Shown piece by piece: positions 1,094 through 38,800 of a DNA stretch of 64,000 nt (within the stretch, counting starts at the first letter, position 1; each line of letters begins with the position of its first letter). The notes beneath the pieces were generated by a model. The model saw only the letters and a list, made by a program, of their open reading frames with translations, was not told the origin of the DNA and searched no databases. Both the position numbers and the translations under genes were made by a program. The stretch is taken from assembly GCA_037379345.1 (NCBI GenBank), contig CM074514.1, positions 14,136,001 through 14,200,000 on the forward strand. Direction: 5' to 3'. The stretch is from Perna viridis (taxonomy: Eukaryota).

Positions 1094-4000
1094 ATCTCTA
1101 GAAAGTAGACTGGTACCTATGAAAGATCCAAGTGTGGTTGTCCTTATCACCAACTCAAATGTTAAACATGAATTGACAGGATCAGAATATCCTACAAGGA
1201 GACGGCAGTGTGAAATGTCAGCCAAGTTAATGGGAAAGAAAAGCCTTCGGGATGCATCTGAGAAAGATTTAGAAGGTATTGTGTATTAGCATTGAACCGC
1301 CTTGGTGGTCTTAGGGTAGCATGCTGTTGGGATTGATCCCTGGTCGTGTCAAAACCAAAGACTTTAAAATTGGTAGTTACTGCTTCTCCACCAAATACAC
1401 TGTTTTAAGAGGACAGAGTGACAACTGGTTGGCTTGGAGTCAGAATAATGAGTAGGATGATGTGCCCACCTGCGGGCTATTGCTTCTGTGAGCTAGCACA
1501 ATAAAGATCTGGCTGAGGGCGTTGGGACTAGTACAAAGCAGTTCTCATCCTGTAATACGATGCTTAACCATAATCAATCAATTATTAAATTGGTGTATTA
1601 GCATTGTATAGATGTAACAATGTCACTCCATCCTGGTCAAATATGTATCACAATTCTTGGCTGATTCACATTGTGATTTTATTAAATAGGGCACATTTGT
1701 GTTATTTTAAACTTCAAAAAATTACATAAAAAAAGAAACATATCCCTTACTATCTAGCTGTTTACTTCCTTTTTAGCTAATTGAGGAATCTGAAAAAAAA
1801 AATGTTCCAGTATAGATTTCCTGATTGTTACTGAAAATATCATGATGCACGGATGGTGGATTGTTACCCCTATAGCATTACATTTTCAATTACAGAGATT
1901 GTTCTCATTGTATTTTGTTTGTTTTTGGTTTGAATTTTTTTTCTTAAAGGGAAGAAGTAGCAATACTGAAGATAGAAATGAGGGAAACTTCTTAGACTAA
2001 ACAATGCTTAAAAGATATGACAATTGATGGAGACCAAATTGCACAAGACAAAGAAACTGGAAAACTAATAGCATGAATTGCAGTGAAGATGGAATTTAAT
2101 TTGAAAATTTGAAATTTGAATTTAAAAATATAATTCCCCATTGCGACTCAGTTTGATAGCATGTGAATTAAATAACATATGGTTGATTAAACTCGTACAT
2201 GGTAATTACTTGTAGCTCATACATGATAATTACTTGTAGATAACAAGGACAAGTTAGATGAGGAGACATATAGAAGAGTTCGCCATGTGATTGGTGAAAT
2301 AGCTCGGACTGAAGAAGCAGCTAATGCCTTAGAAAATGGTGACTACAAAAGATTTGGACAGCTTATGGTTGCTAGCCACAATGCATTAAGGTACTGGTGT
2401 AAAAATTTGAGGGACAAATATAGTAGTATCAAGTCTAATTAAACCATGCAAAGTGAGAAATGAAGTCACCCAAATATTTTGTGGGCAAAATTTTAGTTGC
2501 CATTCACAAAACAATGATTTTGTCTGATGTTGCCTTCTCAATCATTTTCTGTGTACAGGCTCTTTCATATAATTAATATGCATGTCCAGATAATGTATCA
2601 AACAGGAAGAGTATATGGAAACTAGTATGTCAGTTGTTTGTTAAACAATTGAAAGGTCTTTCCCTTGAAAACTATTTCTTTGAATTATTCATGTAAAGAC
2701 ATTTGGTTTGATACATAACACGCTACCTTCTACAAAAGTTTGTTATTTTTTGCAGTTTGGTATCCTAGTCAAATGCAATTCTCAATGTTTTAAACATTAT
2801 TCTTGTGATGTAAACTTGATGACCTTTCATTAGGTATACAACAACCCTACTTTCGTTGTTCTTTAGAATTTTGCACTTATTAACCCCAACTGGGTTCTTT
2901 TTCTGTTTAAAAAAAAATATTTGAGATGTACACATTATTAATTTGATATGTGACAATCTAATTATATGAAAAACTTTAGTTTTGCACTCATTGACCTTAT
3001 GCGACTCATTTTTTCGGGACAAACCATCGATATTTCGGATGTACGCTTTCAGACCTTTCATTTGATATACAACAACATTACCTTCTAAGAACTTTAATTT
3101 TTTACATTTAATGACCCTACTCTTCGAACATGTATTAATTATCAAGGTTGAAACTCTGATTTTTGAAATGTACTTATTTAGACCTTCAAAATGGATTTTA
3201 AAATATATACCCTTGCTCTGAAAAATTAAAATTTCAATAGATCCAAAACGAGACAAGATATCTCAAATCTGAAAAGAGTATGATAACCTACAGAACATAT
3301 GCAACAAAATTACAAAACAATTTGGGCAATTGCAGAGCTCATTTTGAGCACACTGATTATTAAAATGTGATGCAATAATAATCTCCAGAGCAGAAAGTCA
3401 TAGAGACATGAAACTACCACCATACATCTTAGGATTACTTGACCTTGATGAAACAAACAAGGTCAACATCATACAATTATGTCAAGGTCACAAACTGGAT
3501 TCTGGAAAACATTAAAATTCTCATAACTTTTGAACAAACGGTCTGACAGGTGTAAACTTGGTCTCAAAATGAATGGCTTATCAAGAAGGTCATTTCATGT
3601 GCTGTATGTATGCACTTACCACTTATCGTTTTCTTATATTAAGGCCTGTAGTTTGCAGTGAGAAGGCTTTCTAGCACTCTATGACCTTTGACCTTGGATG
3701 CAAATGAAAGGTCACATGGACTAAAGATCATCGATGAAGGTCCCATGTTTCTACAACTTCTGGTTCTCGAAATATAAATATTAAATCTTAAGTATGATAT
3801 TTCAAGGGATATAACTCCTGTATGGTTTGATAATAAAATACATGTTCATGTTTATTCATTAGGTCTTCTTCTTGTGTACATGAAACAGTTTTTAGATTGA
3901 TTTTATCTATTATGGTTTTCAAGATATGAGCAATTAAAAGGAATTGTTTTAAGGGGGACATAACTCTTAAAGATGATAATGAAATCCTTAGCAGGGTTAT

Positions 4001-7000
4001 TTTCTAATAGAACATGATCACATCTACATGTTCACCAAGTATGATAATAATATCCTGAAAAATGAGTTGGGGGGCCATGTTGATAAGACCCTAAAAAGTG
4101 GGAGATAACTTCTACAATGGATGATGAAATTCTTCAAGGGGTTATCCTGTAAAAGTCATAAATGAGATCTATCGATGGTCCAAATTTGGTAATGATATGT
4201 TGAAAGATGACGAAACAGGGCCGTGTCAAAGTAAATGTTGGAAGGAAAAAAACTAGCACTCTGTGACCTTTGACCTTGGGTGCAAATGAGCTTTATCGAT
4301 GGTCCAAATTTGGTAATGATATCTTGAAAGATGATTAGGGGAGAGCATGTCAAAGAAAATTTTGCAAATGACGAAAGAATAATAATAATAAAAAAAAAAC
4401 ACATTAGAAAAACAATAAGGTCTTTCCCCATGTAGGGAAAGCCCTTAACAAGAAAGAAAACCATTAATGCAGCATGAAAATTTGCTACATATACCTTCTA
4501 TTGAGAAGAGGATGAAGATTATAGTATATGTCAGATATTTCATGCATTTCAAATCTTGTATATTAAGAATATTTACTATTCTAGAAACAGATATATTATA
4601 ATTACATATAAGGAATTATACATACACAACTACATGTATGTCTGAGAGTTGCATTGCATTACTTGATTGAGAAAATCCGCTTCTCATTCACTTCTCTCTT
4701 CTATTATGTCTCTTCTCTTTACTTTGAAATTTGAAGTGATACAGATTCAAGTTGCTTTATCTCACTCCAGAGTAGAAAAAAAGAGAGAGCTAGATTCTTA
4801 GAAGTTTCTTTTTTATATAACATAAAATGTACTTTGAAATACTTTGTAAGTGTAAGAACAAATAATGAAAAACTTTGAAAAAGGAATTCCTTTATATGTT
4901 AATGAAATGCTCAGAGTACACTTTAATGGCAGAACCAAGGGGCTCGTTGTTGCAACCCAACTTTTTAATGCAAAAGTTAACAAAATAAAAGTATGGAATT
5001 TCAAAAACTCTGGATCTATCCCTGCACTTAATAGTGAAAAAAGAATAAGGTTTTAAATTAAATGTTTCACAGAGATGATTATGAGGTATCCTGTCCTGAG
5101 TTAGACCAGTTGGTAGAAGCAGCACTGGAGGTTGATGGCGTGTTTGGTTCTAGGATGACAGGGGGTGGCTTTGGTGGATGTACTGTTACATTGGTGAAAC
5201 AGTCAGCTGTTAACAGTGCTATTGACCATATAAAGGTATGTATTATTGTATTGGCTGCCTAGCTGTTAACAGTGCTATCGACCAGATAAAGGTATGTATT
5301 ATGATATTGGCTTTTAACAGTGCTATTGACCATATATAAAGGTATGTATTATGGTATGGCTGCCTGGCTGTTAACAGTGCTATAGACCATATAAAGGTAT
5401 GTATTATGGTATTGGCTGCCTAGCTGTTAACAGTGCTATCAACCATATAAAGGTATGTATTATGGTATTGGCTGCCTGGCTGTTATCAGTGCTATCGACC
5501 ATATAAAGGTATGTATTATGGTATTGGCTGCCTAACTGTTAACAGTGCTATTGACCATATAAAGGTATGTATTATGGTATTGGCTGCCAGTGAAACAGTC
5601 ATCTGTTAACATGCTATTGACCATGTAAAGGTATGTATTATAGTATTGGCTGCCTGGCTGTTAACAGTGCTGTAGACCATATAAAGGTATGTATTTTGGT
5701 ATTGGCTGCATAGCTGTTAACAGTGCTATTGACCATATAAAGGTATGTATTATGGTATTGGCTGCCTAGCTGTTAACAGTGCTATCAACCATATAAAGGT
5801 ATGTATTATGGTATTGGCTGCCTGGCTGTTATCAGTGCTATCGACCATATAAAGGTATGTATTATGGTATTGGCTGCCTAACTGTTAACAGTGCTATTGA
5901 CCATATAAAGGTATGTATTATGGTATTGGCTGCCAGTGAAACAGTCATCTGTTAACATGCTATTGACCATGTAAAGGTATGTATTATAGTATTGGCTGCC
6001 TGGCTGTTAACAGTGCTGTAGACCATATAAAGGTATGTATTTTGGTATTGGCTGCATAGCTGTTAACAGTGCTATTGACCATATAAAGGTATGTATTATG
6101 GTATTGGCTGCCTGGCTGTTAACAGTGCTATTGACCATATAAAGGTATGTAGTATAGTATTGGCTGCCTAGCTGTTAACAGTGCTATTGACCATAGAAAG
6201 GTATGTAGTATAGTATTGGCTGCCTAGCTGTTAACAGTGCTATTGACCATATAAAGGTATGTATTATGGTATTGGCTGCCAGTGAAACAGTCAGCTGTTA
6301 ACAGTGCTATTGACCATATAGAGGTATGTATTATGGTATTGGCTGCATAGTGATACCAGTATTATTGACCATATAAAGGTATGTATTATGGTATTGGCTG
6401 CCTAGCTGTTAACAGTGCTATCGACCAGATAAAGGTATGTATTATGATATTGGCTTTTAACAGTGCTATTGACCATATATAAAGGTATGTATTATGGTAT
6501 GGCTGCCTGGCTGTTAACAGTGCTATAGACCATATAAAGGTATGTATTATGGTATTGGCTGCCTAGCTGTTAACAGTGCTATCAACCATATAAAGGTATG
6601 TATTATGGTATTGGCTGCCGGGCTGTTAACAGTGCTATAGACCATATAAAGGTATGTATTATGGTATTGGCTGCATAGCTGTTAACATTGCTATTCATCA
6701 TATAAGGTATGTATTATGGTATTGGCTGCCTGTAGTTAGTTATATCTAAAAATTGAAGATAAATCTGAGTCTCTAACAGAGTCTTATGTAATGCTGGTAA
6801 TTGCAGTTATTTTTGCAGTGTATTTATTCACAATCTGTGATTAGTTATGAAGTTTAAGTGCCTGCCAATATGCATATGTTAACTATCAACATCAGAGAAA
6901 TGCTTGAGAACTTGACAATTATTATACTTAGTGAAACAGTCAGTTAACAGTTTTATTTCACTATTTCTACCATCCAATATTAAGTGAAAGAAATATCCTA

Positions 7001-7526
7001 TTGCACATTATATCATCTATATAATTACTTAACCATATAAAAATTAAATTTAAAAACTATATTTAAAAAAAAACATGTTAGGAAAGGCTTATGAGACCCA
7101 AACTTTTCAATACAATAACTGGACATTTGAGGCTTCAGTATAAAACAATAGATGTTAACATTGTTTACATTTTATGTACAGGTAAACAAATGTATTGGTA
7201 TTCACTATGATAAAAAAAAAATTGTAGGGTAATAGACACTTGATATCAGAGTGATATTTTGTTTACTTATGATGAATCTGATCAACAACCAAACAATTTC
7301 AGGAACATTTTTTTATAAGAAATGAAAAGTTTCCAGCAAAAATCAGATTTCAACCTCAAATTTTAACAATTATCTCCCTTATTTCATATTTCCTCCTTTT
7401 CTTTGTTTACAAGTATATAACAGAAAACTTTCATTGTTCTTGTTTTCTTTTTAGCAAAGGTATAGTGGAAGAGCAACCTTTTATGTTTGTCCACCATCCT
7501 GTGGTGCAATGGCAGTTCCTGTTTGA
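1094..7526 (+). CDS. GALK1: Galactokinase 1, copy A (5'-partial; last four coding exons)
   Basis: Exons 1094-1275, 2240-2390, 5073-5235, 7455-7526 (182/151/163/72 nt), all GT-AG and in phase. They translate to [40 protein letters not shown]...[10 protein letters not shown]...[20 protein letters not shown]...[12 protein letters not shown]...[17 protein letters not shown]. This includes GHMP motif III, and exon sizes match human GALK1 exons 5-8 as I recall them. Upstream exons lie before the window. Confidence 0.95.
1295..1592 (+). mobile_element. tRNA-headed SINE (Meta/MESC-domain-like) with 14-bp target-site duplication
   Basis: Degenerate A/B boxes (TGGTCTTAGGG, GATTGATCCC), central AAAGACTTTAAAATTGGTAGTTACTGCTTCTCC block and AATC-repeat tail. 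Flanked by GTGTATTAGCATTG at 1281-1294 and 1593-1606. Domain name is from recall. Confidence 0.8.
3250..4447 (+). mobile_element. Non-autonomous Helitron/Helentron-like remnant (left boundary uncertain)
   Basis: Repeated TGACCTTTGACCTTG and GGGAGATAACT-type motifs, an internal duplication, and a 3' hairpin AAGGTCTTTCCC-catgta-GGGAAAGCCCTT at 4417-4446. Confidence 0.5.
5206..6731 (+). repeat. 56-bp minisatellite (~27 copies) made of the GALK1-A exon-7 end plus its 5' splice site
   Basis: Unit GCTGTTAACAGTGCTATTGACCATATAAAG|GTATGTATTATGGTATTGGCTGCCTA. The first copy is the real exon/intron boundary at 5235/5236. Confidence 0.95.
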
Positions 7527-7976
7527 AGATTAGAAAATTTAGCCATTGCTACCTAATTCATAGCATATTATTATTTATTTGAATCTCATTTGGGGAATTC
7601 ATAGATACTTAGGCACTCTTTAACTTGGGGTAAAATGTGATAATGGGAATGATATTTTTTCTGCTGTATTTTGTTAAGGAATCTCATTGTGGATATTGTA
7701 TGTTTTATGTGTGTTTAGGAGTACAATGTACTGTAAATTTGGAAATTATTGAGATGTTTTACTGTTGTGAAAATGTGGATGGATCAAAGTGGAAATTATT
7801 TCTATGGCATCCTGGAAGTTAAGGTAAAAATGACAATCAAAATGGTGAACAACACATTAATTTCTGAATCTCTATGATTAGGGTTGATGCTAGATATTTT
7901 TATTGTTGAACATTTTATTTTGAAATTTAACTGTATGCTATTTTTACAAGTCAAACTATTACATAAGATCTTTTAA

Positions 7977-8166
7977 TATGAGTTGTTCATTATGCTGAAA
8001 AGGTCAGTTCTGTGTATGAGTTGTTCAGTAAGCTGAAAAGGTCAATTCTATGTATGAGTTGTTCGGTATGCTGAAAAGTTCAATTCTATGTATGAGTTGT
8101 TCGGTATGCTGAAAAGGTCAATTCTATGTATGAGTTGTTCAGTATGCTGAAAACGTCAATTCTATG
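7977..8166 (+). repeat. 38-bp tandem repeat x5 in the GALK1-A 3' UTR
   Basis: TATGAGTTGTTCAGTATGCTGAAAAGGTCAATTCTATG repeated five times. Confidence 0.9.
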
Positions 8167-11100: not shown

Positions 11101-12914
11101 ACATGCAGTATAAACAGTAATAAAGTCATGTCTGAATTACATCATAAAATGTATCTTCATGGAATATTACTTGTGTATTTAATTGAATGATATGTTTAAA
11201 GCACATACATTAATAGACTTGGCACCTCTTCCATTTTCATTGAAGTGAGTGGGATACACACAGTGATTACCCCCTTCAAAATCAAAAATAAAATGTGAAA
11301 AGCCATTATATGACTTATAATGAATTTTCTGTTTGTTAAGAGCAATAAAAACTGAACAGGATTATCCTGCCTATAATGAGATATAAGAACAATTTTTGAA
11401 GTGCTGTTGAAGCATTTCGTAACTTGATTACAGTATTGTTTCCATTTACATTATTGATATCAATTCTACAGAAGGGAGTTACACTGACTGAAGTGTCTTC
11501 ATTCCTACTTTTTAATTTAAATTGAGTAATTTTGTTGCATGCATTTAAAAAAACTATAAATTATTCATCAAGCAGAAACTTTTGACAGCAGAAAGCCAGA
11601 AGCATTAACAATACCCTGCAGAGAGGAGATGATTTTCTGAATTCAGATTCTATTTTTGTTTGTGGCGAAATAAGGATTTTTTTCTACAGATTTCACTTTG
11701 AAATCCAGAAACTTAAACTGATTTTAATATTGAGTTTACTTTTCAGAATCCTGGGGAAATGGCCAATGACTCCTACTCCCTCCCCAAACCGTAGGCTAAC
11801 AGGCATAACAGATAAAAAAAAATATATCAGTGGTGAATCCAAGGGTGGGGGCATATTTTGGAAAGTTTTAATTGGTTCAAAATTTTGGCAATAATGAGCT
11901 TATAATTACCTAGAACACCCCCTTTTCTTTAACCTCTGGACCCAACCATGGTACTTTATACCTGCTTTGTAAATTAAAGGGTAAAAAACTTCAACATAGA
12001 CTAATGCTTATTTGACAGTACCTGTTACTTCAATATAAACACTTCATCCACCATCTTAGAAAAGACTCAAGACATAGAAGGAAATAGGCAATATAATTTA
12101 AGTTTGAAATGGCATTAGTCACGCCTCGCGTCAATTCTGATACAAATGTACTGTCTTATTCTAAATAGCCATAAGCAGCGTATTTGCACATTATTAATAA
12201 CATCATTGTTTCACGTTTACTGCATTTTAACAACTACATTTTATTGAAATTGTTATATAAAGGATCTTGTCAAATAATTGTAAGTATTGCTTGAAATACA
12301 AGCTTTTAAATGTGAAGATAATACTAGTTTAATATTCTCAAGTAAAATTAAAGCAGTTTCTGCCAGATTTTTTTTTCACTTACATTAAAGTTCATTCAGT
12401 TTATTGAAGAAGATGTTTATTATGATTCATTGTGGCTTCTGTGTGATTTGTCCCGTATCATAGTAATGCCATTCAAGTAGCTTCCTGCCGAACAGGAAAA
12501 CTTGTCAACATTATAGTCATATTGTCCATAGTGAGAAGATGATATGAGACAAGGGTATAGCTTTATGATCGGGACCAGATATGTGTATTGCCTTATGACT
12601 AAACAGACCTACTTTACAGCTGTCTATTTTGTAAATCCACTATCAATTTTCGATCAAACAGATATTCCCTGTGCAAAGTCCACAATATCAAGCGTTTACT
12701 TAAACATTAACATACTCACCAAACATATTTTTGAATGTATATCCTCAATTCAGACGAGTTTTATAACTATACGGAAGTCTTAAACATGAAATTCTATCTT
12801 GTCGGCACAGTATACCTTTTTACATGTATCCTGATATCCCTCGACTTGACCTCCACTGTGTGACCCCTATTAGATAAAGAGAAATATCTTACAAATTTGA
12901 ATATATATAATGTA

Positions 12915-15900
12915 ATGGCTACATTTATACCAGAAGTTTCTGAGTTGTTATCCACTGCTAGGGAAGCATTTGTGAGGCAATTTGATGTTGAACCAGAAAA
13001 AGCAGCATACGCACCTGGACGTGTGAACCTGATCGGAGAACATACTGACTATAACGACGGATTCGTGCTACCAATGGTTTGTTACACTGAAAATGACTAC
13101 TGCACAACCAGAAACACCATTTAGTATGTGTTTCAAAAAATCTCAAATCACTATTTTCAAATTTTGAGGCTTCAGAGATCTGTCTTATATATTTTATCCC
13201 CCCCCCCGAAAAAAAACAACACACACATTGCACACCCCTTCAACTGCACGAAATTTCAGATTAACTACCTAACTGCCAAGAAATGTCATGCGTACTGAAA
13301 TGTTTTTGGACGTACTGTATTTTAATGAGCTTATTTGTTTGTTCTTTGCATTTTTCACTGGGGTAAAGCGGGTGACCGTAGCGGCCGTTACGGTCATCCA
13401 AAGATTTAGGATGGAAATTCGGATAAGAATAATTTCCTTTAATAAAGTTGTGCTTTAAAGTTATTCAACAAAATAAACATGACGAGTAGTAATTCATAAA
13501 TACTTGATATTTGAGGCTGGAAGCACATGGGTAAAACGTATGGTTAATGAGAAATTACAAGGCAAATATATTTAATTCCTTGTTAAAAGTAACGGCGGGA
13601 TGACCATAACGAAGAATCGGTCTTCTTTTTCTAAGGATGACCGTAACATGCGACAAGAGATGTCCGTAACATGAGAAATATTTCGTAATGAGAGTTTGCA
13701 CTTTACCATAATGATTAACGTTGAATTGCACAAGATTTCACTGAATAATGTTAAAACTGATGTACTTAATAAATTACTTCCAAATGGCTTCTGCTACAAG
13801 CAGTGTTTTGTACAAAATACTGAAAAAAAATACACCTTAAACTATTTAGCACGTTAACGTTGAATCAATGGATTTGGCGATCCATATTTGACTTGAAGAC
13901 TTTCCTGATGTTTCCCTGGGAAAAAGTCCTAAATATAACAACCGGACAGAAAAGTTCCCTCGTGTTAAGTAATGCAGAAACATCATGATAATGTATATCT
14001 ATGGCTGCCGCGTGCGGTAAGGAATATTGATATTGTTGGCTTGCATACGACTGGGAGTGTATGTGTGGCATACAATTTCTATTTTCATATTATAATTCTA
14101 TGTGAGATCTGAACTGTTTTGAATATAATAGAAATGAAAAACAGCTTTGATAGAAAATAGACATAAGAGGTAATCTTTTATTCATATCAAATGATATGAG
14201 AATATTAAGTGGTAGAGTTTTTGGTGATTCAATACACACACACACATAAAGATCACAGGGGTAAAGCGGGTGACTGTAACGGCCATTATGGTCATCCACT
14301 TTACCCTAGTGATCTTTGTGTTGGTAACAGGAGTTTGGTGTTTATTCCAGTTATTGCTGGTGTGGATGTGAACTGTGTAATAATGTTTGGGTTCAGTATA
14401 GTGCCGTCGGATGATATTTGATACACGCTGTGTGTGATATCTGTTTCAAAGATGAAATAAAGAAATACATAAAACGAAACTTAGAAATTGTTACACTTGA
14501 AAATAGAAGAATATTTATATTGTAGGCACTTCAGATGGCGACTGTCGTCGTCGGAAGAAGAACTAGTAACACATCTTGTAGATTGTTAACTCTCGCAGAT
14601 ATCGGAGATGAAACCTACGTGGAGTTTCTAGCACCCAGAAAAGATCAACGACTTCCAACAAGTCCTATACATTGGTCGAACTATGTTATAGGCGTTGTTC
14701 AGCATTACCACGGTAATAACCAATGCTTTTCTGGCTGTTACCACTGAAGCTGTAAGATTAATACAAATTCTTAATAGAGTTTTAAAAAGGCGGTAGCATA
14801 CATGTGGGATGATGATTGGGTTTTTTTTACGGTCTTGACTGTCCTTACGGGTCTCGCACGACCGCCCCTTACGGGGAATCTGTTTGTAATGCCGGTTAGT
14901 AGTAGAAGGTAGCGGAGCCCAGCCTTCGGGATACCTGACCGAAGAATTCAGTCAGAGTATGTCCTACTAGCGGCTGGGCTGCTGTGTTGACGCTCTGGCC
15001 TACTCCCAGACCCCACGTGGGTCACCGCTCCAACTGTTTGGGAGTACGTCAACGTGTAGAGTGCACATACATGTGTATGCGTGTCTTAGTACTTATAGTA
15101 GATTGTGGTAAATAACGAGAAACGTCCACTGAAATGAATCTCTCTCGGATGGTTGAGAAGAAGCCACCATTTTCTGGCACTAGGTCTAACCCTATTCAGC
15201 CATACAAAACTAATCAATAATCCTTATAAACTGTGAGTAGAAAACCATTTAACTCTGAGGGGTGGGACTGGCAGGTTTTGAAAATAAATATTCTGACCTA
15301 CACCTCTTTAAAAATAGATTTTTTTACTTCAGTCCCGACATCAGTAGTATTACAATAACCACTGCAGGTAAATTGTTTTAAGAGGCCATACTCTTTGGTT
15401 CATGGCTGTTTCTGGTATTATGTAGCAAATGACAGTTAAACACATTTTATACCATACTTTCCTCATTATTTCAGGTCCTGTGTTTCCTTTTGACGTAGTA
15501 ATCGTCTCTTCAGTCCCGTTTGGCGGTGGTGTGTCTAGTTCTGCATCACTGCAGGTTGCTATATACACCTTGTTGGACGAATTTAACAATATTCAAACTG
15601 GAAGGGTATCTTTGAAGGACAAAGCCAAGAGGTGTATGGACGCAGAACACGAGTATATCGGTCTCATGGACGGAATAATGGATCAGTTTATATCATTTAC
15701 GGCACAAAAAAAACATGCACTTTTGCTTGATTGTAGGTATATCAACATGCTTCTCATATCATAAATAATATAAAATAGAGGTTTGGAGATCTATATCACA
15801 ACTGGGTTCAGAGAAATGAACATTGAGACGTTTGGTTTCTATTGGCTTAATTACCATCACTACTGTAACATATACTCCTATTGTATGTTTGAGTTACAGA

Positions 15901-18900
15901 GTCACAAAAATCATAATGACTGTGACCCAATGAACAAGTGAATCACATGCAATTAGGTGAAGAAAAAATATCTTTTTTTAACTTCCTGCTCATACTCATT
16001 TCAAATAAGAACAAACAATTTGCAAATTTAACCAGTAAAGCATCGAATTTCTTGTAAAGACCATTACCACAGTTGATTTTGTTTTTTCCTGCTACAGTAA
16101 ATTTTGTTTTCAAGGTCACTGGAGAGTTTTCAAATCCGTATACAAGAAGCTTCGGTGATAGTGCTATTGACAAATTCAAACGTTCGCCATGAACTAATAA
16201 ATACTGAATATCCTACACGAACGCAGCAGTGCAAAGATGTAGCCGCAGTCCTGGGTGTTGGTAGTCTCCGTGATGTATCTTTACAACAACTTAAAGGTTA
16301 AGTTCCATTATGTATGTCAACGGGGGACCAATTGCAAATACAGGGACAATTTGAGGCAAAAATTGGCAAATTATAGTCTTGATCCCCTTTTATAACTTTC
16401 CGGATTTGACCCCTTTTTCAAAATTAATTTTCTCGACCCACACTTGGTTATTATTATTTAAGGAGATTCTGACCTCCACAGTTAGACTAGTGCATGATTG
16501 AAAAAAATATGAAAAAAGATATTTCAGGATTCCATAAAATAGTAATATTATTGCAGAACTTCTAACTGACTATTTATTTAATACGTATGCTAGTTAGAAC
16601 AATATTGCTTTGAATGAGGAAATTTTCAGGTGATTATGCTAGCTTTTTTATTGTATGCAAGGTTTTTTAATGAGTTTCAATACTGATGTTTATTTTGAAC
16701 CACGGTTTAATTAAGCGTGTTTTGTCCTAAACCTAAGCCTTGACCTTTGGCAATCTATATACTATCTGTAAGTTTACCTGTACACCAACCTATCTTTATC
16801 AAGGCTTTTAAAGACTATTCTTATTTTTTGACACGTATTTGCTTCCAGCCGTGAAGTTACATGGATAAGTATGTCAAAATGAGTCTTTACAAAATTGTGA
16901 ATAGATATTTGTAATACTTACAATATCTTAAATCATTCTTGAATACGATTCTAAGCTTAAAGTATTTGACACAAGTCTTTTCATTTGCAGCAAAAAAAGA
17001 CCGAATAGACCCTGTACTTTTTAAAAGAGCGCACCACGTGATAACAGAGATCAAACGTACATCAGAGGCAGCCCGAGCTCTTGAAAGGAACGATGTCGTA
17101 ACAATGGGACAACTTATGGTAGATAGTCACAACTCTCTCAGGTCTGTCGACGGGCTTGGTTTGCAAGTGAAGACATTGACAAGCAATTTCCAAAGTTTCC
17201 AAGAAATAGCAATGACTTTAAAATTTATCTTTTTTTAAGAAAAAAAAAACTGATTCAAACCATTATATCAGACATGAAACAGAAGAGGTTTAATTGAAAA
17301 TTTTATGATCCCACTACCCGACAAGAAGATGTCATGGGCTATACCTGTTCCTTCATAATCCAAATAGGATGTCACCAAGTCTGGAAATAGCTTACCAGTA
17401 CAACTTCATGATTAAATCAAATGTTGATATTCAACACGATACCAGTGGACGGCGTAGTGTGTTCTTGTTTGATTTCTCAGGGCCGTAACTACCATTGGGG
17501 CAATTGAGGCAATTGCCTCCCCTAGAATTTCGGCAACAATAATTTTTTTTCTTCTAAATATAATTGCGCATTTGAAAAATCGATTCCCAGAGAAACTGAA
17601 ATCCGTTTTCTGTGGCAATTGTTTGCTACCGTCGTTGATAAAAAAAAAAAAAACTTGACCGCTGTAGTTGTTAATATTACGAAAACCCAGTACATGTTCA
17701 TACAGTGGCTTGCTCCCACTATCAAATATGCGGCCTCATTAGTATGTAACCTATAGTTATATACTAGTAGTGTCGTATATTTGATAAAGGGAGTAAGCCA
17801 CTGTGATGTACATGAATGATTTACCAACCCGAAATGACTTTCCTCAAGAAGTAGTAAAATGCAACAGGTCAAGTTGAAGTGTATTAGAGACTTTAAACTC
17901 TTTTTGAATGCTTGACAAAAAAGATGGATAATCAAAAAAATTATTTTAGATGCAAACCAAGTGCCAATTTCAAGGATTATTTTGGTGTTCGGGGGTGATT
18001 TAGCATTACAGTAACTCGGGCTTTGGAGTTCAGCGGAAAAATGAATCACACTTCGTCCTCCGATATTTCAATTGGAGTGTCCTAAGTGTAAACTGGTCGA
18101 TTTGAGTGGTCCCTTATATCCAAATGTATGATATGGTCAAAGCTACAGACAAAACAATATCAGTGAAAAAATTATGGAACCCTTTTAAGTCAATAATTAA
18201 AGGACTGTAGCCATATGGGTGGTGGTAAGAAAATCCACTTTCGGGGCAGAATATAACAATAATATAATAAGCGTATAGTGTGTACATCTTTGTTATTTTT
18301 CAAATCTACCAGATTATTAAAATTGCATGTATTTTGTAAAGGAAGATCTGACCAATAGGGCCGAAATTTAAGATAGAGAAAGAAAATGTGGAATAATGTC
18401 AAATGATACATACAAAAACAAATAATTACTTTTGTAATATATATATTTACATCAATTCAAGAAATCATGTTCCCAAACTCCTGGAATATGTCCAATTTTA
18501 TGCCATTACATAAAAAAAATCTGAGGCCCTTAATCGCCGGCCCCTAACCCCTGCCTCCTATGTAAAGGAGTCTTATGTTGAAACTAATCTGACACCACTC
18601 TGTGTTAATTATACCCGTTATAGAAAAAAGATTGAAATTGGTAATTTTTATTTGAAAACCTTTCATAATGTCAGAAAACTAATTCTTGTAGAGATGATTA
18701 TGCAGTATCATGTGCGGAGCTTGACGAATTGGTGATAGCAGCACTAGAAGTTGAGGGTGTATACGGATCCAGGATGACCGGTGGTGGTTTTGGCGGTTGT
18801 ACAGTCACTCTTGTCAAACCTTCATGTATTAATCAGGTCATACACAATATTCAGGTACCCATCTTAAATGACTAAAACGTTGTATTGTAATACTTTAATA

Positions 18901-19189
18901 CTATAACATTGCACTTCGAGAATAATTTTTTGTTGGTGTACTTTGTATATAAATCATTGCTGATCGTGCTTGAGAACTTCTAATATTCAAACCTCTTATG
19001 GAAGTCGATATGCTGTATGAATATTGTTACAAAATGCGACTTACTCAAATAATCGAAATCGGGTAAAGATGAACATCGCTGCATGATTAATTTTACTATA
19101 TTATCTTTCTTTTTCAGACAAAATACTCAAAGAAAGCGACTTTTTATATCTGTAAGCCATCAGGGGGATCAACAGGAATAATTGTTTGA
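12915..19189 (+). CDS. GALK1: Galactokinase 1-like, tandem paralogue B (complete, 7 exons, 392 aa)
   Basis: Exons 12915-13076, 14526-14712, 15475-15736, 16115-16296, 16991-17141, 18692-18854, 19118-19189 total 1179 nt and are open. Motifs: [26 protein letters not shown]...[16 protein letters not shown]. Confidence 0.95.
13356..14321. mobile_element. Non-autonomous DNA transposon with ~45-bp self-palindromic TIRs, in GALK1-B intron 1
   Basis: Left end CACTGGGGTAAAGCGGGTGACCGTAGCGGCCGTTACGGTCATCC. Right end reverse-complements to CACTAGGGTAAAGTGGATGACCATAATGGCCGTTACAGTCACCC. Subterminal GGATGACCRTAAC repeats lie at about 13597-13670. Confidence 0.65.
14807..15065 (-). mobile_element. GC-rich, highly structured SINE/LINE-tail-like insertion in GALK1-B intron 2
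   Basis: Candidate 10-bp TSD CATACATGTG (14797-14806 and 15066-15075). Minus strand ends in a stem-loop, then A8, then (ATC)n. Several long self-complementary stems. Confidence 0.55.
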
Positions 19190-20690
19190 ATACCTTTATA
19201 ATACATGCAACATTATTGTTATTTTCCTTGATGAGATATGTTGTTTTTTTTTCAAATTCAGCATTTGTGTGCACTGAACAGTTTTAGTTTGATTTTATTT
19301 GTACTGTATTCATCATCTCACAAGTTGATTTTGATGGATTTAAAAGAAAACTTTAATTTCGTAACTCGAACTTGGATTTCCAATTAATTCGATGAATGTG
19401 ATATGATGAATGTGAGTCACATAGTAGACGTATTGAGATATAATTTATTGACAATGACAACGTGACAACAGTTTTCGCTTCTTTGCACAACTTTTAAATA
19501 AAAGGCTAGAGGTAGCTGTAATTCTACTTGAAAAAGGATCGCTACCTATCCGTTTTAGCCCTAGCCACCAATAGGCAGGCATGGGCATAGATCAAACTTA
19601 CAATCAAATTTCCAGTAAAAAAAATTCTATTACACTTCACCTGATAAAAGAATGGAAAATAAAATTAAAAGAGCTTTATCGAACTTACATCACCATTCCA
19701 AAAAAAAAAAAATAAATAAATAAAATAAACACAAGGCGAGATATTATGCAAGTTTTCTAGAGGTTGTTCTTTATACTTTTTTGTTTTGGATTGTGGCGTT
19801 TTTGAATTGTTAAAATGCTTAGTCCGTCTATACAAACCTTAAAGCATTGTAAGTTAGAGCTATTGGAGCTTACAGTTAATTGTGAGTTTATCCGCGTGTG
19901 AACTCTATCCGACAATGCATCTCTTGGTCGACACAAATCGAGTGACTTGCTTAAAAAACAAACTAAGCAGACATAACTTTGCTTACAATGCATGGCAGGA
20001 AAAAAGACAAATGTCAAAAATACGGAGATAAAGGCATGAGAAGAACCAAGCAAGCATTGTCAATATTTAAAAACTTAAAATACAAATCGAACACACCTTT
20101 CACAGCATCCATTTTATTTTTCAAAGTGTTCAACCTTTACAAATACGGTTTTGAGCAAACATTAGATTGTTTATGACAACATAAATAATAATAATAAAGA
20201 AAAAGAAAATATTTGATGAATTTTAATTAAACAAAGCACTATGCATTTAATTAACATTGATTCATCACACAGGTGCAAATACTGACAGGTAACATGACTA
20301 TATTTAGTAATAAATAATTTCTATTTATATCACAGTTGTGGCTTTTCTTATTTACAAAGCATCTGATGCTGGGCCTATACACCTCCCTCTAGAAAATACA
20401 TTTTTAGCTTTATAGGTGCAAAAACCATCAATAAAAAGATACTGGCAAAAGTATGACAGACGGAAAGAACAAGAATTAAACCTTATTATGCAAAAGAAAC
20501 AAAGAAAACATAACAACAGACAATACACATAACAAATTGCCCAATAAAGAAGTCAGTATGGTATCACAGTAACAATGATCCAGGCATAATACTGATTCTC
20601 AGTGACAGGTTTTATATTGTTGTTGGCTCCTAAAAAAGTCAGTTTACTCTTTCTCTTCTCAGATTTTGATTTAGAGTTCATTTTTTTTCA

Positions 20691-24813
<4,123 letters not shown>

Positions 24814-25522
24814 CTTGGGTGGTGGAAATGAAGGCTCGGCTTCTGTTCAAGAAAAAAAAAGAACAAAAGTTATAAAGTGGATGCCATAGAAAAAAAATAG
24901 TGGGTTGGGAATGTCCATTCAATACATTCCAATAAAATAACCCAATATCATAAAATTTGTAAGCAAATATATCATTTACCCTGTGTTGATATATATAAGA
25001 CATTGTATATGCTGTAATATTTCCCTTGGTCGTATGTAGCAACCAAAAGCACCACAGTGTATATATCAGGTAAATATAAAAATGCTGTTTCTATCATAAA
25101 CTAAAAACCAAAATGCAGGTTTTGATCAAGAGAAATATAATTTTTGCAATAATTTATAACGTAAAAATAAAAAGTTTAGTAAATGGTAATATAAAACTTA
25201 ACATTACGATTACTGCTGGAGTAGCTAAGTAACTTCAAATTGTTCTCAAGTGAGTTTTGAAAAAAAAGATATACGTAATTCTATAAATATCGATAAGTTA
25301 TACGTGTAATTTGAAATCTTCTTTTCTTGTATACCTCTACAAATGTATTTCAAAGTTAATAAAAAAAACATTTTTTATCAAACGAAATGTTAATTAACAA
25401 ATACCTGATGTGAAACAGTCCAGACACCCAACGAATATTACAAGATATTAAGTATGATAAATTTCAATGATTGTTAATCCTCGTTCTATTTAAATGGCCA
25501 CATACAAATTAGAAATAGTCAA

Positions 25523-26887: not shown

Positions 26888-29800
26888 ATGGCGGACGTTC
26901 CAGCGGATGCACCCCAACGTGAGTTGAATTATCATGCAGTTGTTCTCATTAGAGTTTGACAGTAGTGTTTATTGATTTAGAATTGTAGACATTGTTATAT
27001 TGTTACAGTCTATTAATTTGATATACTCGTTTTTATTTTATATTATTCGAGCTTATGTTATTTTTTCCTACATTTGTCTGTCAGAAATTAAATGGAAACG
27101 TGAATTTCAGTCATTTGACTTAGTTATTAGAATTCTTACAGAATTAACATTGGTCTGTTATAATCACTGAAATGATTTTGTTTTGGCACGTCGATAAAAT
27201 TTTAACACAAAATTGCTTTGTGAATTACACTGTCGAAGAGAAACTGTTTTCTTGGGCTTTGAAACAAGTCTATTTTTATATCTCATCAAAATTCTCATGT
27301 CACTAATCACTAAACTATATTGCATGCTTATTAATTTCCCCTAAAGTGCTTGAGTGTAGCTTATTTCAAATTGTAATATAATAATTCCCTTTTAAGTATA
27401 GTATGAGTAATTTTACTCTGATGACATGTTATGACTTTTACATACGTATATTGAATTTTGTTGACAAGTTTTCTTCTTAAATCAAACTTGCAGATGATAC
27501 AAATGTCAATGGAAAATATCAACTCATGTAGTAGCCAATAATTTAAATTTTGATGTCATTTTACTTGTAAATTTGTCTGTAGATTGTCCAGGAACACAAA
27601 GTGTATCAGCTGGTAAAGTTGAAGCTTGTGCTGGGTGTCCAAATCAGTCAATTTGTGCCAGTAGTCAACCTAAAGGCCCAGATAAAGGTCAGTACTCAAT
27701 AAAAAAGGATCAAATTTGTGACTGAGACCTGTAAATTTATATTTTCTGTGAAATGCAATAATTATGCTTCTCTTTAAATATGCCTAGCCTATCTTCCTAG
27801 AAGGGAAGTATTATGGCATACTGTTCTTTGTCCACCTGTCATCACACATTGCACAGTAATTAAAAATGCTTCCACCAATTTTTATGAAACTTCTGTAATT
27901 TTTCCTCTCTTTGATGAGCTCTTTTTCAATTTTTATAAATTTCCAATTTTAATTTGTTTTTGAGTTACTAACTTGGCTTTTTTCACTCAAAAAAGAGTAA
28001 TCTATTCCTCCAAAATCTTAGACCAGTTTTCACCAATCTCAAATTATTAGTTTCTATTGATGTGAGCTATTTTTTAAAATTTTTATAAGGTTTAAAATTT
28101 TATATTTTTCATGCTATGGGACTTAATATCATCAAAATTGAGTGTTTTCTCCTACAGTTAGTATGTAGTACAACAACTCAAATAGTATTCCACATATTTC
28201 TATGAAATTTTTGTGAATTGTATTTCTATTTATGTTAACTCTCTTTCTATTTTGATAAAATTTAGATTTTACATTTTTGAGTCCTGGGAAGTTGATCTTT
28301 TGATACTGAGTAATTTCCATATTGATCTATCATGTCACATCCATTCCTTCTGTATCGTGTATTTGGATTGATGCATATCATAGAAGCATGTTTTGGGTGA
28401 TTTTGCAAGTTTATCCATAAGCCTTACAAACTTTGTCAAGAAAAAGTCCTATTATGCTGGAATATATCAAAATGTGATAAAACCATTTTTGTGTACAGAA
28501 AATATCATATAAAGTTGTTATTCAATAGGCAATTCAGAAGGTATAGAATTTGGACAAACCAACATGTAGTAGCTGAATGTTTTATACATTTTTTTTGTTT
28601 TTATTTCTATCTTTATTGCCAAAGTCGATACAAACTGAAAGTTTACATTTCATTTGAATTATGTTAACACTAGATTTAAATGTATAAACCCAAATTTTGC
28701 CACAGAATAACAGATAGTGTTTGTTGAAATTATACATTAATAAGGCTAATTTAATAAAATGATTCTAAGAGGTCTGTAAATAAATTTACCAGTGCCAAAA
28801 TTACACAGTTCTTTCTTTTCCATCATTTGTTCTCATCAGTTTAATAAATTTGTACATTTTTGCTGATGTATTTCCCTTTGTGTCTCAGTCTGTCCACAGT
28901 TTGTAACAAAACACAAATACTTACAGATATTATAATTTCTTTACCATGTTTTTTTTTGTCCTTACGGAAGGAAACTCCATTTCACTTTTAGTTATTTTCT
29001 TATTTTTATTTCAGAGTTAAGGGACTTTGACTATCATAAAGGAGGGACAGTTGTTCATTTGCTTTAGGGCAGCTGTTTATTAAAAGTAAAATATTTTAAT
29101 ATATAGTATTTGCCAAAGTAAATGGTACATCATACAAGCTGATTAGTAAATGTAGTTCTGACTGTGTTATCTATCATCTCATTAGCACAAAACCAGACAG
29201 ATTTATCTTTAGGCTTTAGTAAAGATTCAAAGAATTTTCTATAGGAACATTGTCTTTAAGGTATCTTACATGTGTTTTTGTTGCAGATGTTGGTGAAATA
29301 AAAAATAGATTATCTTCTGTGAAGCACAAGATAATTATATTATCAGGGAAAGGAGGTGTTGGAAAGAGTACTTTTACAGCTCATCTAGCTCATGGCCTGG
29401 CTGCTCAACCTGATACCCAGGCAAGTAACAGCTCATCTAGCTGATGGCATGACTGCTCAACCTGATAATTGTGTAGGTTAGAGCTCATCTTGGTCATGGC
29501 ATGCTGCTCAACCTGATAATCAGGTAGGTTACAGCTTATCTAGATCATGGCCTGGCTGTTCAACCTGATAATCAGGAAGATTACTGCGCACCTAGCCCAT
29601 GGCATGATTGCTCAACCTGAAATTTGGGTGTTACAGCTAAATGAATATTGGTATGGCACAATTGCATTGTCAATAGACACTTTCTTCAGTGCAACAAACC
29701 AATATAAAACTTTGTATAGACTTATTTCAGGGCCAATTTCAATGAAGTTTTATTTACTGGTAAAGTATTGAAACTTTTAGACTTTTCTGATATTCTGAAT

Positions 29801-35800: not shown

Positions 35801-38800
35801 TTCAAAGATTTCAAGAAAATCATGAAATAAACCACTTACAGAACCTTTGTCATTGAAAGAAAATATTAACTTCAATGCAAATATTCAGGAATAGAATGGG
35901 TATGGAGTACCCTGTTTTTTGTCCCGACTAGATAAATCAGTGCTTTGAAGTGTGAATGGTGTGTAAAGTGTAGACAGGGTGGATCAATGGTGAGCATCCT
36001 TCAGAAAAATTGACTGAAGTAATGCTATAGTAGTATAGATGACAACATCAAAGTTTTCCTAAGTCCTTAATTGTATTCTGCCAGTTATGCTTACCTGTGT
36101 AGAACTGGAAAGTAAAATAACCAAACCAACAATCAAAACAAATATGAATTTGTCAAACTACAATGTCCTATAGCTAGGCCACAAAAATAACCAACCACTG
36201 AAAATTGTTCTGCAAATTATAAATCATGAAATGAAGTCAGTATCATAACCTGTAACACTATCAGACCAGAATCAGGAAGGATTGAATATTTCCATTTTAG
36301 TTGTTGTTTATTATGAAAATGGGGGGGGGTAAGTTATATGGTAGCTTTAGTCCTTTTCAGTATAGTGCCTTGTGTCTTATTAGTAACAGAATACTGATTT
36401 CTTTCAACAATATAGACTAATAGACTAAAAATTATGAAGTATTTATTGGTAATCAACAGTAAATTCGGTCTTGTGACCTGCCAAGGGAAAGCAAAATTAT
36501 GGTCACCTATGACAGGTGGTCTTTATATATAGGTTAATTTTACATATTATGGACATATAGAGATAGTATGATGAATACAGATAGTCACGAAGACAGCTCT
36601 GACTGTACCATATTTTGAGGATGTAATTAAGCCAAATCTTGTAAGATACATCGTTCATACGTTATGACTAGTATACGATATAATGAAGTTGACAGTCTGA
36701 TTTTGTGTCTAATTTCCACAAGAGGTACTCAAAAGTTCACACATGAATCAAATATTTGCATTCACTTAATCTTATAATACAAACATGGACTGTTAAGGAC
36801 AAATTTTATCAATTAAGTGGCAATTTATATTGTACATGGTTCAAACAATGCTAAATATGTATGCTTTTGAATTTTAGCTAATTTGTTATTCAGAGTTGCC
36901 AAAGGAATTCTATCTTTCCAGCTTTTGTTAATATTTGAATTCTTCTTCCATGTTGTCTACTATCTTGAGGTATTATAATTTATGCCATATCAGTCTGATC
37001 TGTTAATTCATGTATATACTTATTTTGTCTGCCATACCTCATATTAAGATTTGCCTTATATATTAAAGTCACATTATCATTATGATATGAAATATATGCT
37101 GTTCATGAGAAGCAGGTATCAGTTTATTAGGAAATCATATTTGAATTGATGATATGATGCTTTGTGCCATGCAGAGTACCAGTATAATTCCTTCTTTTTA
37201 AGGCCACTTTTAAGCAAAAGCATGTTTTAATAAGCCTTTGATCCATTAAATTGTTTGATATAAAAATATTGATTTAAATTTTCCCATTTTACCAGTAGTT
37301 AATGTACATGTTGACAAGAAAGCTTATCCATTCTTATATATAGTGTATACATTTTTGATATGTAAATTACCCCCTTTAAACAAATTTGGTGTTTGGTTCC
37401 AGTAGACTTGAGACATTAGCTCACACACGTATATCAATAAATAATAATTCTTTTATATAGTATTCTTTACTGCCCATCAATGTGAAAATTGTGTATTATT
37501 CCTGCTAAATGTAAGGTGGTGACTTTATTCCACTGATATCAGTATATATATAAGTAGGGTTTTGATTTGAAATTTGTGTTTTATGTCAGCAAGGACAGTA
37601 AAATGATAGGATTCGTGTGGGAGGCAAATTGGATAATAACTCTTGCATCAATGACCTAAATAGAAAGAGTTTTTTGATCATGGAAGAATTTTTGATTAAA
37701 TATTCTTTCATTGCAATAGGAAATGGATGTTTAACTACTTGTGATAATCAGAGTGTGAATTTACTGTTCAAAGTTTTTCCCCATCTCTCTTTGTAATTTG
37801 CTTCTTCACCTTTTTACTCCTAGTCATACCAGGAATATTTTCCATTTGGTATTAGAAATGATTCCTTTTAACCCATGAATTTCATTGGTATTGCCACCTG
37901 ACATTTATATATGTTTACAATGTATAGTTTTTTAATCCTTTTAAGATATGCTTTATACCAATATATGGATTATAAAGTGTCATCTGGATTTAAAACTATT
38001 TATGACACTCTTGTCTCGTTCTATGTAATATATCCCATTTCAAACAAATTCTACTGTATTCAAATATGACTTCAGTCTAGATTTTTTTGTACATGTAATT
38101 GGAATCTCAGGATAATGGAGCATCTAAAGAAGGATTCAAACACAATTTGCTGTAGAAGATTTATGATTTCTTTCATTTATTGAGAAATTATTTCAAGGCA
38201 AATAGCATAATGACATATTTGCTGAAAAAAATGACTGTAAGAACCCACAGGCAACAACTTATCCAAAGATAAGGGGTCCATGATATTCTGTCACACTGGC
38301 CAAAATATGTCTCCTGCAGTCTCCATCAAAAGAGAAACTGGTAAGGGATCCATGATATTCTGTCACACAGGCCAGTGTACACGTCTCCTGCAGTCTCCAT
38401 CAATAGGGAAACTGATACAGGGTCCATGATACTCTGTCACACTGGCCAATATACATGTCTCCTGCAGTCTCCATCAAAAAAGAAACTAATACAGGGTCCA
38501 TGATATTCTGTCTCACAGGCCAGTATACATGTTTCCTGCAGTCTCCATCAATATGGAAACTGATACGAGGTCCATGATATTCTGTCACACAGGCCAATAT
38601 ACATGTCTCCAGCAGTCTTCATAAAAAGAAACTAATACAGGGTCCATGATATTCTGTCACACAGGCCAATGTATGTTTCCTGCTGTCTCCATCAGAAGAG
38701 AAACTGGTATGAGGTCACTGATATTTTGTCACATAGGCCAATATATTTCACCTGCAGTCTCTATCAAAAAAGATAATGGTATGGAGTCCATGATAGTCTG

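Follow-up and report, generated by a model that had tools for sequence, protein, structure and literature searches.

A donor-spanning minisatellite in a galactokinase gene of the mussel Perna viridis

The galactokinase locus and its repeat array

The analysed DNA, referred to here as the window, is a 64,000-nucleotide stretch of Perna viridis (assembly GCA_037379345.1, contig CM074514.1, positions 14,136,001 to 14,200,000 of the forward strand). It carries the galactokinase gene GALK1-A, an intact-looking second paralogue in tandem, GALK1-B (~12900–19190; 42–72% identical over the compared exons and 72% across the exon bordering the array), and, after GALK1-B, a tektin gene on the minus strand (~20700–24850). 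The penultimate coding exon of GALK1-A matches Pfam GHMP_kinases_C (E=1.6e-10), and its best PDB matches are galactokinases of 391–399 amino acids (6q3w, 7rcl, and 1wuu; residues 315–367, E=2.5e-22). The match to N-acetylgalactosamine kinase is weaker (E=1e-9). Judged by these similarities, the array-bearing gene is a GALK1 galactokinase, as originally predicted, with a GHMP kinase C-terminal domain closest to galactokinase and an intact frame. No stop interrupts the translation of the four exons in the window; the 5' exons are located in the adjacent stretch (L009). Upstream, exon 2240–2390 has a 3' splice site that is itself duplicated (24 bp x 2, at 2192–2239), and the downstream AG is used in spliced contigs.

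The intron behind the penultimate exon contains a minisatellite of 27.0 copies with a 56-bp unit (TRF score 1805). Its opening unit starts within the exon and straddles the exon–intron boundary, the position of which is confirmed by spliced contigs. In each unit, about 24 nt from the intron start precede 30–42 nt from the exon end, and the 5' splice site is thereby repeated down the intron. The array holds 27 donors, with GT beginning at 5236, 5292 ... 6652, 6707, which agrees with the predicted 27 tandem copies of an exon end plus 5' splice site. The motif AG|GTATGT, expected in almost every unit, is present in all 27, preceded by A (AAG) in 26 and by G (GAG) in one. The array thus adds 26 donors (5292–6707), all of them (26/26) with AG|GTATGT. 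The 26 donor-to-donor units measure 56 bp (17 units), 55 bp (four), 50 bp (two), 66 bp (two), and 67 bp (one). The three long units bear a longer copy of the exon end, and their alignment suggests that the first duplication was about 67 bp long or that the exon seeded the array twice.

The array also has higher-order structure. The predicted duplication of a six-unit block of about 346 bp was borne out, as units 4–9 and 10–15 differ by 0 edits and the block measures 346 bp. Units 21–24 likewise repeat units 1–4 (1, 0, 0, and 0 edits). The proposed extension of this repeat to unit 25 failed, since unit 25 is 3 edits from unit 5 and nearer to units 3, 16, and 23 (2 edits). The perfect blocks indicate recent turnover. 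They are not proof of the ongoing unequal exchange that had been claimed.

It is highly improbable that the assembler inflated the array or its exact 346-bp duplication. Such an error would fit the 383 bp of perfect identity and the lack of any observed read across the full array. Against it, the array holds at least 15 distinct unit variants. The independent DNA run X5, which differs from the window by several flanking SNPs, has a summed contig depth of 429–2151 in the first unit versus ~56 in the unique flanks. This 8- to 38-fold excess implies that a multi-copy array exists outside this assembly, depth not being equivalent to copy number. In run X10, a rare 50-bp unit occurs beside normal ones (contig loose end at 6588). 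The array is found in runs from other animals, whose short-read contigs carry no array length. When the exon was searched against the assembly, the GALK1-A locus was the single candidate place, in a search that ignores common words and leaves uniqueness unproven. At most, the exact copy number of the array is in doubt.

Table 1. Coordinates of the features at the GALK1-A locus and of the splice-site-spanning arrays in the surveyed stretches (L numbers)
Feature	Position	Strand	Evidence or remark
GALK1-A penultimate coding exon with an 11-residue motif; last 30–42 nt are the exon-derived part of the unit	5073..5235	+	Pfam, PDB matches, spliced contigs X10, X11, X13
Minisatellite, 27 copies	5205..6731	+	TRF, unit alignment
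Authentic 5' splice site, donor 1, AAG|GTATGT	5236..5241	+	Contigs of depth 220–228 joining to the 7455 exon
In-frame TAG met by any transcript retaining the first unit	5260..5262	+	Translation
Internal exact repeat of 383 bp, offset 346 (units 4–9 = units 10–15)	5385..6113	+	Unit comparison
67-bp unit, longest exon copy (42 nt, 1 change), with frame-preserving pseudo-exon option 6291–6323	6257..6323	+	Alignment, acceptor scores
229-bp exact copy of 5248–5476, offset 1143 (units 21–24 = units 1–4)	6391..6619	+	Unit comparison
GALK1-A last coding exon (23 residues, stop), strong acceptor	7455..7526	+	Splice joint, acceptor score, translation
GALK1-B control: equivalent exon, 263-nt intron 18855–19117, last exon; without array	18692..19186	+	TRF, exon comparison
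VPS8 exon array, 39 bp x ~99	L086:9933–L087:3617		Pfam
VPS8 exon array, 84 bp x 5.9	L087:4443–4937		Pfam
VPS8 exon array, 59 bp x 6	L087:7646–7997		Pfam
Donor-spanning array, TTL exon	L049:5856		Pfam
Other donor-spanning arrays	L025:8298, L174:5853, L174:7464, L175:3043, L177:2429, L062:7459		Exon-like by anatomy
Other donor-spanning arrays	L097:6029, L159:6938, L161:571, L179:27–3976	-	Exon-like by anatomy
Acceptor-spanning arrays	L153:2591, L150:7745(-), L102:4645(-), L038:939(-), L016:6622, L017:5581		By eye; L150 alone passed the strict blind test

Donor choice and the fate of the spare splice sites

Translation beyond position 5235 yields VCIIVLAA and then a stop, the premature termination that had been predicted for read-through. 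Every later donor lies behind this stop, and the full-length enzyme is therefore obtained only from the first donor, as had also been proposed. Were a later donor to be used, the protein would lose its last 23 residues, gain 8 others in their place, and stop at 5262.

The choice of donor was followed in assembled contigs, the only form of the sequencing runs that was examined; runs X10, X11, X13, X15, and X16 are not on record as RNA. The contigs of X10, X11, and X13 skip introns at GT..AG and hence derive from spliced transcripts. The missing RNA label weighs neither for nor against any reading, and the same holds for stretches of intron without coverage in these runs. In all three of these RNA-like runs, the dominant contig leaves the genome after 5235 and resumes at the last coding exon. 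The tables of X10 and X11 are nearly identical and possibly represent one data set, and the three runs carry two study codes. Across 6540–7800, in four runs of four study codes, the sole listed joint leads to 7455 and occurs in three of the four runs. The true exon lies upstream of this joint in X10 and X13; X15 has just 28 letters upstream, of ambiguous origin, and the joint is absent in X16. Contigs within the array are 31–86 nt long, jointless, and of depth 2–8.7, compared with 2–3.3 for other intronic contigs. No joint from a later donor is listed in the contigs, which were compared over 5236–5345 and 6540–6731 of the array, contigs being an assembly product that drops rare forms. In units 9, 15, 16, and 18, the final 30 or more letters are identical to the exon end, and use of their donors would look the same as use of donor 1; in addition, RNAs containing the stop may be degraded. 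Splicing from the first donor (5235) is dominant, and later donors may be used rarely. In the assembled contigs, 5235 was the only donor found, which is one half of the outcome named beforehand as marking a neutral VNTR, the other half being no effect of copy number.

A different expectation is that the array acts as a leaky regulatory repeat, in which donor 2 or 3 is chosen in a minority of transcripts, these being truncated or degraded, and copy number tunes the GALK1-A level. This is unlikely. All 26 extra donors are intact and equal in strength to donor 1, rare forms can be missed in contigs, and two extra donors are used in human IFI6 and in CBS according to the accessible text of PMC1557585. 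The available part of PMC10078293 likewise describes effects of repeat length on splicing at many human loci. On the other hand, no variant unit end joined to 7455 is listed in the four runs. Human F7, as excerpted in PMC1557585, uses only the first available donor, which would make distant copies and copy number largely irrelevant.

Sequence constraint on the spare donors bears on the same question, and the original prediction had asked whether GT positions are more conserved than the rest of the unit. In the GALK1-A array, the eight columns from -2 to +6 carry none of the 27 distinct substitutions, with 3.9 expected (P=0.012–0.016), which would suit selection on the spare donors. The signal is weak: GT alone gives P=0.375, columns -3 to +6 give P=0.054, and some invariant eight-column window is expected in 30% of permutations. 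This array had moreover been singled out for its intact donors, and the test was redone on 14 donor arrays outside the window (four with a Pfam-confirmed exon, five from the blind exon test described below, and five by eye). There, columns -2 to +6 show 40 changes versus 36.8 expected, and GT shows 13 versus 9.2. GT is kept in 168 of 208 downstream copies, and a few of the misses are cut-off last copies. Extra conservation of GT was thus not upheld, and the GALK1-A signal was gone in the independent arrays. Donor columns in these 14 arrays change at the background rate, which implies that spare donors erode no differently from the remainder of the unit, as those of neutral repeats would, and this also counts against leaky regulation.

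Each unit formally runs from GT to AG, and the array had therefore been likened to back-to-back 56-nt introns with zero-length exons. Recursive splicing through such AG|GT junctions, or the birth of an intron by tandem duplication, is very improbable. Scored as acceptors, the AGs at the 26 unit ends range from -1.7 to +1.1, and the three true GALK1-A acceptors that were scored all lie higher (2.4, 4.0, and 11.6, the last being the real 3' site of the array intron). These scores come from an approximate matrix, a crude measure on which two true sites score low. The units are just 50–67 nt long, and the normal joint is the only one listed. These results lower the probability of zero-length exons without reducing it to nothing, and the comparison with stacked introns found no support.

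One frame-preserving option does exist. Among 50 pieces of at least 9 nt running from an AG to the next donor, only 6291–6323, which encodes 11 residues, preserves the frame and is free of stops. The suggestion of a 33-nt pseudo-exon is correct as to frame and unsupported as to splicing: its acceptor scores 0.3 and no contig shows the piece spliced, although the contig comparison covered other parts of the array. Some internal AGs score 5.8–6.3, yet the resulting pieces of 19 or 21 nt either change the frame or include a stop.

Intron gain by tandem duplication, the model that the array was thought to resemble, meets a further obstacle in the paralogue. GALK1-B has an intron at the identical phase-0 position, without an array. 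An intron common to both paralogues predates the gene duplication and the array, and no intron has been gained. A literature search for the position of the human GALK1 intron found no relevant paper among the matches listed. In favour of intron birth stands the hypothetical proposal of Ebner et al., in the accessible part of PMC3087553, that amphioxus "mirages" (tandem copies of exon–intron boundaries) are a path to new introns.

Taken together, the array is best read, with a probability of roughly 85%, as an intronic minisatellite spanning the boundary of an intact galactokinase gene, in which the first of 27 donors is used and the 26 extras are silent, neutral passengers. A short segment across the boundary would have been duplicated in tandem (possibly about 67 bp first and later mostly 56 bp) and then amplified by slippage or unequal exchange. 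Growth would proceed into the intron only, because the exon must stay single. Its tolerance would come from the spliceosome's choice of the donor furthest upstream, a rule that is experimental in human F7 and assumed here. The locus itself is ordinary: it adds one case to the donor-reiterating minisatellites, and its observed spliced RNA is normal. A preference for the first of several identical donors, which is experimental in mammals, is thereby suggested for an invertebrate as well.

Donor-spanning arrays in the wider genome

A second donor-spanning array (52 bp x 4.8) lies within the window at 29374–29620, where it follows an exon in a NUBP1-like gene (Pfam ParA). Its first donor is a GC site, CAG|GCAAGT, and a later copy reads CAG|GTAGGT. 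A stop falls within the first unit, and the full-length protein would therefore need the GC donor. This array may offer a natural test of donor position versus strength. The window contains further repeats. A 50–51-bp intronic minisatellite at 44473–45540 is split in two parts, with about 700 bp between them; this spacer holds a 178-amino-acid open frame on the minus strand that has no Pfam match and bears a resemblance to part of a retroelement reverse transcriptase. Minisatellites away from splice sites occur at 7977–8166 (38 bp), 38273–39137 (72/74 bp), and 47584–48823 (34 bp), downstream of the GALK1-A stop or within introns of the NUBP1-like gene.

Arrays of this type were also surveyed in 180 stretches of 10 kb (1.8 Mb) on 15 contigs of the same assembly, 159 of them at round-number places and 21 beside the window. 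Four donor-spanning arrays outside the window follow Pfam-confirmed exons, at three successive VPS8 exons and one TTL exon. Confirmation by Pfam is insensitive: the four arrays came from 92 candidate frames in the first 1.0 Mb outside the window, where one zinc-finger match was a coding repeat. In the second 0.8 Mb, none of 72 candidate frames was confirmed, and a lone cadherin match lay beyond the end of its array. Among the arrays at L049, L025, L097, L159, L161, L174, L175, L177, L179, and L062, only that at L049 has a Pfam-confirmed exon. The L179 array comprises 53 copies of 73 bp, L159 and L161 have similar exons with differing arrays, and in L062 almost an entire short exon is repeated.

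A blind test required an acceptor, an open frame with a codon score, and a donor inside the first unit, and was applied to 139 arrays with at least 2.5 copies and a period of 20–120. Eight donor-type ends were found among 258 usable ends, versus 1.0–1.5 expected at array-free positions (P ~1e-4, or 0.003 with the hits grouped into six presumed genes). Acceptor-type ends numbered 1 versus 1.3–1.9 expected, with no excess. Donors were in 2.6- to 8.3-fold excess across 15 settings (P 4e-6 to 0.07), and acceptor enrichment was absent in all of them (P at least 0.23), despite several acceptor-spanning arrays recognised by eye. Strong donor words in array consensus sequences were in moderate excess over shuffles, with 14 versus 6.1 ± 2.6 for arrays of at least three copies and 7 versus 3.8 ± 1.9 for those of at least five. 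The codon model was built from 1,122 codons, GC content was unmatched, and arrays of both types that the eye readily recognises escape the test. The neutral reading of the GALK1-A array is supported by this recurrence: four Pfam-confirmed arrays outside the window, eight found by the blind test, and the additional NUBP1-like array within it.

About 380 exon-like donor clusters pass the blind test, and roughly 2% of them have an array. Extrapolating 8–14 arrays per 1.8 Mb to 723 Mb gives some 3,000–5,500 arrays, a figure scaled from a small, clumped, and unannotated sample. We regard as tentative, with the odds somewhat against it, the broader idea that 5' splice sites themselves seed minisatellites, such that arrays lie across donors at about 3–8 times chance, not across acceptors, and number some thousands genome-wide. 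Selection can only remove arrays, and the excess would therefore have to come from biased mutation at exon ends, for which transcription- or splicing-coupled slippage or repair are candidates. If so, about 2% of exons would be followed by a series of spare donors, which would make the genome as a whole a natural test of first-donor choice. Neither a precedent in mussels or other bivalves nor a genome-wide count was found in a literature search, most subscription papers being outside its reach.

The donor-side excess is more useful than the locus, as it indicates that arrays are frequent and donor-skewed in the 1.8 Mb surveyed. If an annotated genome-wide count confirms it, it would point to mutation bias at exon ends and provide thousands of natural cases of 5' splice-site selection. 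Donor-reiterating arrays are also a warning to annotators about false micro-exons.

Comparison with known systems

The exon of GALK1-A matches GALK1 structures (6q3w, 7rcl, and 1wuu), and the mussel differs in having two tandem paralogues, with an array in A only. The closest splicing parallel is the 37-bp VNTR in IVS7 of human F7. As described in the accessible portion of PMC1557585, its first unit lies across the exon–intron boundary, the donor is reiterated, and the first donor is used; in minigene experiments, the most upstream of the identical donors was picked. GALK1-A is alike in that its first unit spans the boundary, its donor is reiterated down the intron, and the upstream-most donor is used. 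It differs in being an invertebrate gene with a 56-bp unit, 30–42 exon bases per unit (four in F7), and higher-order blocks. F7 is a VNTR studied with minigenes, and GALK1-A is known from one assembly and contigs. The same portion of PMC1557585 lists IFI6 (6-16), with 25 pseudo-sites of which two are used, CBS IVS13, with two extra donors used, and LMNB2 and PDGF, in which only the first donor is used. The 25 pseudo-sites of IFI6 are comparable to the 26 extra donors of GALK1-A.

Amphioxus mirages have been described in Adh3, troponin C, the globins BflGb6 and BflGb9, and PGBD5, with splicing undisturbed, in the available text of PMC3087553 and PMC3902484. As far as that text goes, they share with GALK1-A the tandem copies of an exon–intron boundary, a unit within 10–160 bp, several genes per genome, and normal mRNA. 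They belong to another animal group and have been described one gene at a time, at boundaries of both kinds, whereas the excess in the blind test here is at donors only. The tandem-duplication model of intron gain by Rogers, as summarised in the accessible part of PMC3087553, also involves duplicated segments bearing AG|GT. In GALK1-A, in contrast, what was duplicated is the donor of an intron already present and common to GALK1-B, and there is no new intron position. By its sequence layout, as compared with the available parts of these reports, the GALK1-A array is a donor-reiterating intronic minisatellite of the F7 IVS7 and amphioxus mirage kind, which is already known.
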